From: a virus
Lineage: Duplodnaviria > Heunggongvirae > Uroviricota > Caudoviricetes
DNA length: 4,215 nucleotides
IMG/VR virus record: IMGVR_UViG_2534682294_000022
Reading direction: 5' to 3' (one strand)
Shown one piece after another: positions 2,242 through 2,622 of the stretch. Positions within the stretch are counted from its first letter, which is position 1. Every line of letters begins with the position of its first letter. Made by a program: the position numbers and the translations under genes. A model generated the notes under the pieces. The model was not told the DNA's origin. It made no database searches and saw only the letters and a program-made list of their open reading frames with translations.

Positions 2242-2484
2242 ATGTTCGCTCTGATTCAACGTGGTCAGATATACACGGACAGAGCCGGATACCCTGTGGT
2301 GATTACTCGCAGTACTCAGCACTCAGTGTTCTTTCGACGCATGGACGGGCGCTCCGGACGGGTACGCATTGGTGAGTTCAACAACCTGTTCGAACATATT
2401 GACCAACAGGAGTACCGCAAAATTCTGGCGGGCACTGAGCAGGAAATGCGCCTGAAAAAATTACGCGCAATGCAACGGAGGTGA
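2242..2484 (+). CDS. small basic prophage protein, 80 aa, unknown function
   Basis: ATG 2242 lies 4 nt after the preceding stop. ORF ends at TGA 2482-2484, inside the SD of the next small ORF. Resembles small conserved proteins found next to xis/int in enterobacterial prophages, from memory only. Confidence 0.65.
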   Translation: MFALIQRGQIYTDRAGYPVVITRSTQHSVFFRRMDGRSGRVRIGEFNNLFEHIDQQEYRKILAGTEQEMRLKKLRAMQRR

Positions 2485-2487
2485 TAC

Positions 2488-2622
2488 ATGCATACGGCTT
2501 TTGAGTTCTGGGTTCGCAAGACATTCGGCAATCGCTACGACCTGACCCGTGATGTCGACGGCTTCTACTGCCGTGAAGTTGTGAAACGAATGTTTGACGT
2601 GTGGTGCCACTGCCGTGGATGA
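2488..2622 (+). CDS. candidate 44 aa Cys/Trp/Phe-rich small protein (MHTAFEFWVRKTFGNRYDLTRDVDGFYCREVVKRMFDVWCHCRG)
   Basis: Not in the supplied track. ATG 2488 preceded by GGAGGTGA 2477-2484 at about 6 nt. It fills the otherwise gene-free gap between 2484 and 2641. Stop TGA 2620-2622. Confidence 0.5.
   Translation: MHTAFEFWVRKTFGNRYDLTRDVDGFYCREVVKRMFDVWCHCRG

Follow-up and report, generated by a model that had tools for sequence, protein, structure and literature searches.

A conserved microprotein gene placed directly before xis in a lambdoid Stx1-type prophage and its enterobacterial relatives

The window (the whole stretch of 4215 nt of viral DNA analysed here) carries at positions 2488–2622 what is almost certainly a real protein-coding gene within an operon, and its 44-residue product, hereafter the microprotein, is under purifying selection. 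The microprotein is a member of PHROG 3871, a catalogued family without assigned function, and was already known in that sense, since both RefSeq and PHROGs already list the exact protein, as part of a family that is uncharacterised. What is added here is that the stop codon of the gene is strictly placed in the Shine–Dalgarno (SD) sequence of xis across excisionase families, with no co-variation of the microprotein with Xis. For the picture as a whole we lean, by a modest degree, towards an early-left accessory microprotein that acts in trans and is translationally linked to xis.

Window positions 1533–4215 match the Stx1 prophage of Escherichia coli O157:H7 (VT1-Sakai/YYZ-2008), whose insertion site is yehV/mlrA, with 100% identity, and int is the prophage end in the O157 relatives, adjoining yehV/mlrA. 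The window represents a lambdoid prophage of Stx1 type at its integrase-proximal end, with the following features:

1792–2154: DUF551 gene (Pfam)
2151–2237, plus strand: hydrophobic ORF of 28 aa in the same operon, absent from the RefSeq annotation
2242–2484, plus strand: gene for a DUF4222 protein of 80 aa, the upstream neighbour of the microprotein gene (Pfam DUF4222, E 9e-16)
2488–2622, plus strand: microprotein gene, 44 aa, PHROG 3871 family (ORF; RefSeq/YYZ-2008 annotation; phrog_3871, E 1.1e-32)
2620–2622, plus strand: derived stop codon of the microprotein gene, after G44 (DNA alignment A4 and junction listing)
2631–2636, plus strand: TGAGGT, the xis SD, whose TGA (2631–2633) is the stop of the 48-aa forms; invariant in DNA alignment A4
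2641–2895, plus strand: xis, DUF1233-type excisionase of 84 aa (Pfam DUF1233, E 2e-29; phrog_539 excisionase; annotated xisR)
2929–4215, plus strand: int, tyrosine integrase of 428 aa (Pfam Arm-DNA-bind_2 and Phage_integrase; annotation)

The xis product of the window is 27% identical to Rac XisR. Positions 1–1532, which hold a DUF977 gene (319–714), a 138-aa ORF with a weak zinc-ribbon match (711–1127) and a 70-aa ORF, are not found in the O157 Stx1 prophages that match 1533–4215 at 100%. Because this left third is missing there, and because no complete E. coli genome or phage record covering at least 80% of the window was found, we place a mosaic joint near 1533, inside a 123-aa ORF. In the short gap between the 70-aa ORF (1176–1388) and the 123-aa ORF (1424–1795) we also spotted by eye a hairpin (GCCGCCC-GAAA-GGGCGGT, 1398–1415, plus strand) that is rich in G+C, has GAAA as its loop and has no T-run after it.

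A first-pass annotation of this DNA had pointed to an apparent 156-nt gap between 2484 and 2641 in its gene track and had proposed that an unannotated small ORF fills it. The gap is there in the sequence, and it is occupied, as proposed, by an ATG-initiated ORF of 44 codons running from the ATG at 2488 to a TGA at 2620–2622 and encoding MHTAFEFWVRKTFGNRYDLTRDVDGFYCREVVKRMFDVWCHCRG. The strong SD that had been noted, GGAGGTGA, lies at 2477–2484 (plus strand) with its GGAGG 6 nt ahead of the ATG, and the TGA of the DUF4222 gene (2482–2484) falls within it, so that the microprotein starts 4 nt after the preceding stop, again as described. Nearly all homologous loci have a purine-rich SD 5–9 nt before the ATG, including those with an unrelated gene upstream; this neighbour varies, the E. 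coli loci having DUF4222 and others unrelated genes (it differs in loci L004–L014, L059, L068 and L084). A scan of positions 2000–3100 revealed no promoter-like site or terminator near the microprotein gene, the sole terminator-like match in that segment (2969–2982) lying inside int and equalling the shuffle expectation. The label 'unannotated' proved correct for the track in question and for older entries, of which AP000400 (VT1-Sakai) leaves the gap empty, but not for current public annotation, in which the identical protein (100%) is WP_000556583.1, 'hypothetical protein', in RefSeq/PGAP and gp03 (YP_002274139.1) in phage YYZ-2008. In a 93-aa protein (P0085) and two E. coli matches (H112 and H113), DUF4222 and the microprotein are called as one protein or the small gene is unlisted, as would be expected if the two genes were now and then fused, or wrongly called, across the 3 nt that join them.

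Since ORFs of 25 aa or more number 60 in the window, the length of the microprotein ORF is in itself no evidence, and comparative data were therefore used. Loci were collected from species-representative genomes (11 loci, from Scandinavium, Pantoea, Shigella, Citrobacter, Superficieibacter, Trabulsiella and others) and from 80 viral contigs, and 95 sequences were compared. An intact ATG-initiated ORF was present in 95 of the 95 related loci, in 40 distinct DNA versions; the first-pass annotation had named loss of the reading frame in related prophages as an outcome that would speak against the gene, and the frame is kept throughout. Codon-level analysis of 38 distinct 132-nt cores found variable sites at 22, 20 and 39 of the 44 first, second and third codon positions respectively, with a pN/pS of 0.177 and a pS of 0.50 in the ORF frame. 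Stops interrupt every one of the remaining five frames, in 13 to 38 of the 38 homologues, and pN/pS exceeds 1.9 in four of these frames, the fifth (on the minus strand) having a value of 0.29 and stops in 38 of 38. With the frame intact in every locus and pN/pS this low, the earlier proposal that a small accessory gene fills the gap immediately upstream of xis and int is well founded. There is next to no probability that the gap instead holds a chance ORF, an antisense gene or a non-coding RNA element. Long minus-strand ORFs do overlap the gene (90 aa at 2378–2650 and 49 aa at 2461–2610), but both were rejected as candidates, with stops in homologues and pN/pS above 1.9 for those frames that are open in any homologue; of the three minus-strand frames, all with stops in 13 to 38 of the 38 homologues, two have pN/pS above 1.9. 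Against a non-coding RNA, no Rfam match was found in the window and no excess of RNA structure was detected.

The profile searches that had been proposed for the 44-aa sequence gave a mixed outcome: the phrog_3871 profile was matched with an E value of 1.1e-32, residues 1–44 aligning to profile positions 1–44 of 48, and Pfam was not matched, nor were there matches in the NCBIfam and PADLOC scans of the protein. When 1.84 billion representatives were searched exhaustively with a profile, only 33 matches emerged (50% identity representatives), and a profile search of a 5.8-billion-sequence set yielded 190 clusters, from Escherichia, Salmonella, Klebsiella, Enterobacter, Citrobacter, Pantoea, Serratia, Hafnia and Cronobacter. 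All named cluster matches belong to Enterobacterales, and the source names are only 'hypothetical', 'uncharacterised' or 'Bacteriophage protein'. Using tblastn against 50,697 phage records, 44 records were matched, and lambda is not among the 40 of these 44 that were listed. PHROG 3871, WP_000556583.1 and YYZ-2008 gp03 are identical or homologous to the microprotein, 44–48 aa long and in the same slot upstream of xis, and together with the homologues in phiP27, BP-4795, Fels-1 and Klebsiella prophages they make up the family itself. Distant relatives of the microprotein match phrog_343 as well, a larger family without known function. We found no function, structure or publication attached to PHROG 3871 or WP_000556583.1, and a search of the literature for the latter accession gave no match. 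The microprotein was likewise not found in the Sakai RIBOseq supplements or in an Enterobacteriaceae microproteome preprint, and a literature search with 'DUF1233' returned nothing on its expression or function.

An AlphaFold model built on a 23-sequence alignment has a pLDDT of 91.6 and comprises a helix (residues 2–13), a loop with a beta-bridge and a second helix (residues 30–43), so that a helix/beta-turn/helix hairpin is predicted with high confidence; lack of a confident fold, in combination with absence of translation, had been named beforehand as counting against the gene. No solved structure resembling the model was found. In the BFVD viral structure set, one close relative is a 47-aa protein with 48% identity and a TM score of 0.89, and there are many further matches, with TM about 0.7 and probability 0.9–1.0, to uncharacterised proteins of very different phages, among them phages of Erwinia and Acinetobacter, Burkholderia BcepSauron, Pseudomonas 201phi2-1 and Delftia PhiW-14. 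Because the microprotein family itself is narrow (33 representatives), these links at the level of fold may reflect convergence on a very simple fold. The conserved core of the family (invariant or at least 90% in alignment A3) consists of F5, E6, G14, Y17, D22, G25, Y27, E30 and M35, and the window protein carries all nine of these residues.

The first-pass annotation had also described the peptide as aromatic-rich, with a C-terminal C-x11-C-H-C cluster that could bind metal, and had likened its position to that at which Rac-type prophages carry the restriction-alleviation gene lar. As to composition this is accurate for the window protein, in which aromatics make up 9 of 44 residues and C28, C40, H41 and C42 form the motif. 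Metal binding by this cluster, in contrast, is not borne out. Of the four residues, only C28 and C42 reach 90% conservation or more among close relatives, C40 being replaced by S, R, Y or F and H41 by Y, S, R, D or E; in the wider family several members have a single Cys (P0057, P0068 and P0073 only the equivalent of C40, P0078 only that of C28), and the conserved residues are aromatic, charged or Gly, with no Cys or His among them. Conserved Cys/His ligands are thus fewer than three to four among the close relatives, and the wider family has none, and since the cluster is not conserved a zinc site is unlikely. The structure prediction proposed as a check for a zinc-binding fold gave the helical hairpin instead. 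Judged from its secondary structure, C28 lies ahead of helix 30–43 and C40, H41 and C42 are consecutive at the far end, about 18 Å along the helix (pLDDT of the last block, 78), a placement that would make poor geometry for chelation of one ion.

The positional analogy with lar fares no better. The gene order in Rac is intR-xisR-rcbA-ralR-recT, so that the positional equivalent of the microprotein gene is rcbA and not lar. RcbA (YdaC), like the microprotein, has a small gene that immediately precedes a DUF1233-type excisionase, but its sequence is unrelated, and homology was rejected at an hhalign probability of 0.06%. Lar/RalR of Rac (PF14354) resembles the microprotein in being a small Cys-bearing prophage accessory protein encoded near xis and int; it differs in being a four-Cys zinc ribbon with two CxxC-type knuckles, whereas the Cys of the microprotein are variable and its predicted fold is helical, in showing no homology, and in being encoded by the second gene from xisR, the microprotein gene being the first from xis. 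Homology to RalR was rejected at an hhalign probability of 1.5%, and a 14-residue resemblance of the microprotein to the RalR C-terminus is accordingly not significant. A Lar-like, zinc-binding restriction-alleviation peptide, as first proposed, would draw on this resemblance, on the presence of C28, C40, H41 and C42 in the window protein and on one distant relative, P0080 (L097, 88–507; 139 aa), in which the hairpin domain is followed by a zinc ribbon, separate and C-terminal, that matches Lar_restr_allev below threshold (E 3.7e-4; 21.1 bits, the cut-off being 28.6). We regard it as very unlikely, given that the family as a whole conserves neither Cys nor His, that the modelled geometry is unfavourable, that the microprotein has no CxxC pairs, that it has no Lar match in Pfam (none to Lar_restr_allev at E up to 0.1) or NCBIfam and no PADLOC match, and that in Rac the gene beside xisR is not lar. 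P0080, which is known from one 619-nt contig only, also has a sub-threshold match to the Elf1 ribbon and a precomputed weak match to PF26207 (Phage_phiTE_015).

We found that the junction between the microprotein gene and xis follows an unusually strict pattern. An excisionase gene lies directly downstream in 92 of 95 loci, its start no more than 18 nt past the microprotein stop or overlapping it. By type, the downstream excisionase is phrog_539/DUF1233 in 78 loci (including the frameshifted L024), lambda-like phrog_2917 in nine, AlpA-like phrog_66/33798 in four and phrog_1553 in two. The three exceptions are L014, where a LexA-like gene adjoins the microprotein gene and xis is 1.3 kb further on; L004, with one gene inserted ahead of xis; and L024, in which xis is frameshifted. 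The common, 48-aa forms of the microprotein end in ...GTG GTG TGA GGT G, with the xis ATG 7–10 nt on, and the ancestral stop therefore lies inside the xis SD. The 44-aa form differs by a deletion of 1 nt (the C of a CTG), which puts a TGA in frame after G44, so that the window gene stops at 2620–2622, 11 nt upstream of the ancestral stop at 2631–2633, and its last four residues, the L-x-V-V tail, are gone. In the window, xis begins 18 nt downstream of the microprotein gene and in the same frame (2641 − 2488 = 153 nt; the TGA and six codons). Read-through of the TGA in the window would consequently yield a fusion like that of L095, described below; the shared frame is not kept in the 48-aa forms.

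This arrangement resembles that of translationally coupled phage gene pairs in having the ancestral TGA within the xis SD, 7–10 nt from the xis ATG. It departs from them in that the microprotein itself is selected, no structure masking the ribosome-binding site is apparent and the stop in the window is shifted 11 nt upstream. RNA folding (z +0.2 to +1.9) revealed no mRNA structure that would hide the ribosome-binding site of xis, and the argument for translational coupling is consequently one from spacing. The same spacing, found across xis families, would suit a cis-acting leader ORF, in which translation alone matters by bringing ribosomes to the xis start and the peptide itself is functionless; the 44-aa form, which shows that the last four codons are dispensable, would also fit. 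Such a leader is nonetheless quite unlikely to be the explanation, as the amino-acid sequence is selected while synonymous sites diverge freely (pN/pS 0.18, pS 0.50), the predicted fold is confident, homologous domains occur in other genomic contexts and within larger proteins, and no structure sequesters the ribosome-binding site.

The junction is also a place at which prophages recombine. Similarity between prophages with different xis types stops just past TGAGGT, and E. coli matches break off at window position 2636 and inside the 3′ half of the microprotein gene. Mosaic breakpoints at and inside the 3′ end of the gene, together with the joining of the same microprotein to four xis families, could be taken to mean that the stretch is kept mainly as DNA for the swapping of integration modules and that its coding capacity is incidental. 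We consider this improbable as the primary explanation, because conservation is at the level of protein rather than DNA (39 of 44 third positions vary, with a pS of 0.50) and the frame is disrupted in none of the 95 loci. Service as a linker may, even so, be a real secondary consequence, though one that does not explain the pattern of selection.

That the gene is so regularly followed by xis raises the alternative of an excision accessory factor whose direct partners are Xis and/or Int, and which might, say, stabilise Xis or tune directionality. Such a factor would explain why the microprotein is encoded next to xis, with the excisionase starting at most 18 nt from its stop or overlapping it in 92 of 95 loci, and one lineage even has the two in a single frame: at L095 3963–4336, the microprotein domain is fused to a DUF1233 excisionase (...YEMWVHFNS followed directly by MPIDLNNW...), with an integrase gene after it. 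This fused protein (P0077/L095) is found on two contigs only, and a search with the fused ORF as query found no other example; as a singleton, it is given little weight. Against direct work with Xis or Int, three identical 44-aa cores pair with both DUF1233 and lambda-type Xis, the mean identity of microproteins between xis families (84%) equals that within families, so that no co-variation with xis family is seen, and the integrases associated with microprotein loci are as little as 27–29% identical. Moreover, the gene is missing from lambda, in which orf55 adjoins xis with nothing in between, from Rac, which has rcbA in that slot, and from many phages with the same Xis families. Distant members are located elsewhere, P0073 in a nin region between NinH and an MT-A70 methylase, P0057 two genes before an excisionase and P0068 near a head protease, and in L014 it is the LexA-like gene that adjoins. 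An accessory factor of this kind is therefore unlikely. Since identical microproteins are paired with unrelated Xis types, the microprotein does not appear to be a specific partner of Xis; from these sequence comparisons, a Xis-specific physical partnership is unlikely and the link would be an architectural one.

Near-absolute adjacency to xis and the one natural fusion do, all the same, count against the reading preferred here, as they could point to a role in excision. A more novel possibility would be that the microprotein is a module-independent controller of prophage excision, always placed directly before whichever xis is present. It could then set the output of Xis via coupled translation, or act on a shared factor such as a host architectural protein or an Xis-degrading protease. 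We hold this, too, to be unlikely; if it were true, the microprotein would be the stand-alone form of a widespread, uncharacterised phage hairpin domain.

The reading that we prefer, an early-left accessory microprotein acting in trans and translationally linked to xis, takes lambda's exo–xis region as its model. In position the microprotein gene fits the exo–xis class, being on the early-left strand, immediately before xis and without a promoter of its own (exo itself lies outside the window). It shares with the genes for the lambda exo–xis proteins (Orf55, Ea8.5, Orf60a, Orf61, Orf63 and Orf73), as described in PMC8614690 and PMC3824215, the features of being small, non-essential and early-left and of lying before xis. 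These two sources report that the region influences lysogenisation and induction. Homology is another matter: none was found between the microprotein and the named lambda members (orf55, ea8.5, ea22 and orf60a/61/63/73), and lambda is absent from the 40 of 44 tblastn records listed. In lambda it is orf55 that sits in the xis-adjacent slot, and its product was modelled as three strands and a helix (PMC8614690), in contrast to the helical hairpin predicted for the microprotein. A search by term of that paper found no mention of the microprotein gene. We also considered lambda Orf55 (L103, lambda 29118–29285) as a counterpart of the neighbouring DUF4222 protein and rejected it, there being no Pfam match and no BLAST alignment. 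Because lambda orf55 is dissimilar to the DUF4222 protein of the window, the slot next to xis appears to be held by unrelated genes across lambdoid phages.

The microprotein gene is the last of the early-left ('exo–xis') accessory block, co-oriented with xis–int and directly upstream of them, and its 3′ end forms the region in which translation of xis is initiated. It would be expressed from the early-left transcript after induction or infection. Ribosomes finishing the microprotein would be well placed to start on xis, a coupling by proximity. The peptide would act in trans and without metal, as a small protein-binding modulator, and its target, if the small early-left proteins are a guide, may be one common to these Enterobacterales phages and their hosts rather than one Xis. 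The conserved end of the gene would at the same time double as the left-hand joint for exchange of integration modules.

Taken alone, a small gene missed by one annotation track and present in RefSeq and PHROGs would be a routine case. The analysis does, however, remove an attractive but wrong zinc-finger/Lar reading, and it documents a selected microprotein family of Stx-converting and other enterobacterial prophages. The unusually strict positional rule that this family obeys, directly before any xis and with the stop in the xis SD, marks a fixed joint for the exchange of integration modules and gives a testable way into the question of what sets the level of Xis in Stx1 prophages, whose excision and induction matter for the spread of the toxin.

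The same operon contains a second small ORF. This hydrophobic 28-aa ORF at 2151–2237 (plus strand; MMNWPEAFTAVGVAIAVAFILYSLFRWG), whose ATG overlaps the DUF551 stop (ATGA), is without annotation in both RefSeq FRIK944 and YYZ-2008. Eight DNA variants elsewhere preserve the pattern M-x-W-P-[ED]-A-F, a hydrophobic stretch and then [CF]-R-W-G, including directly upstream of the fused gene in L095. This ORF is probably a genuine single-pass membrane microprotein that annotation has missed.
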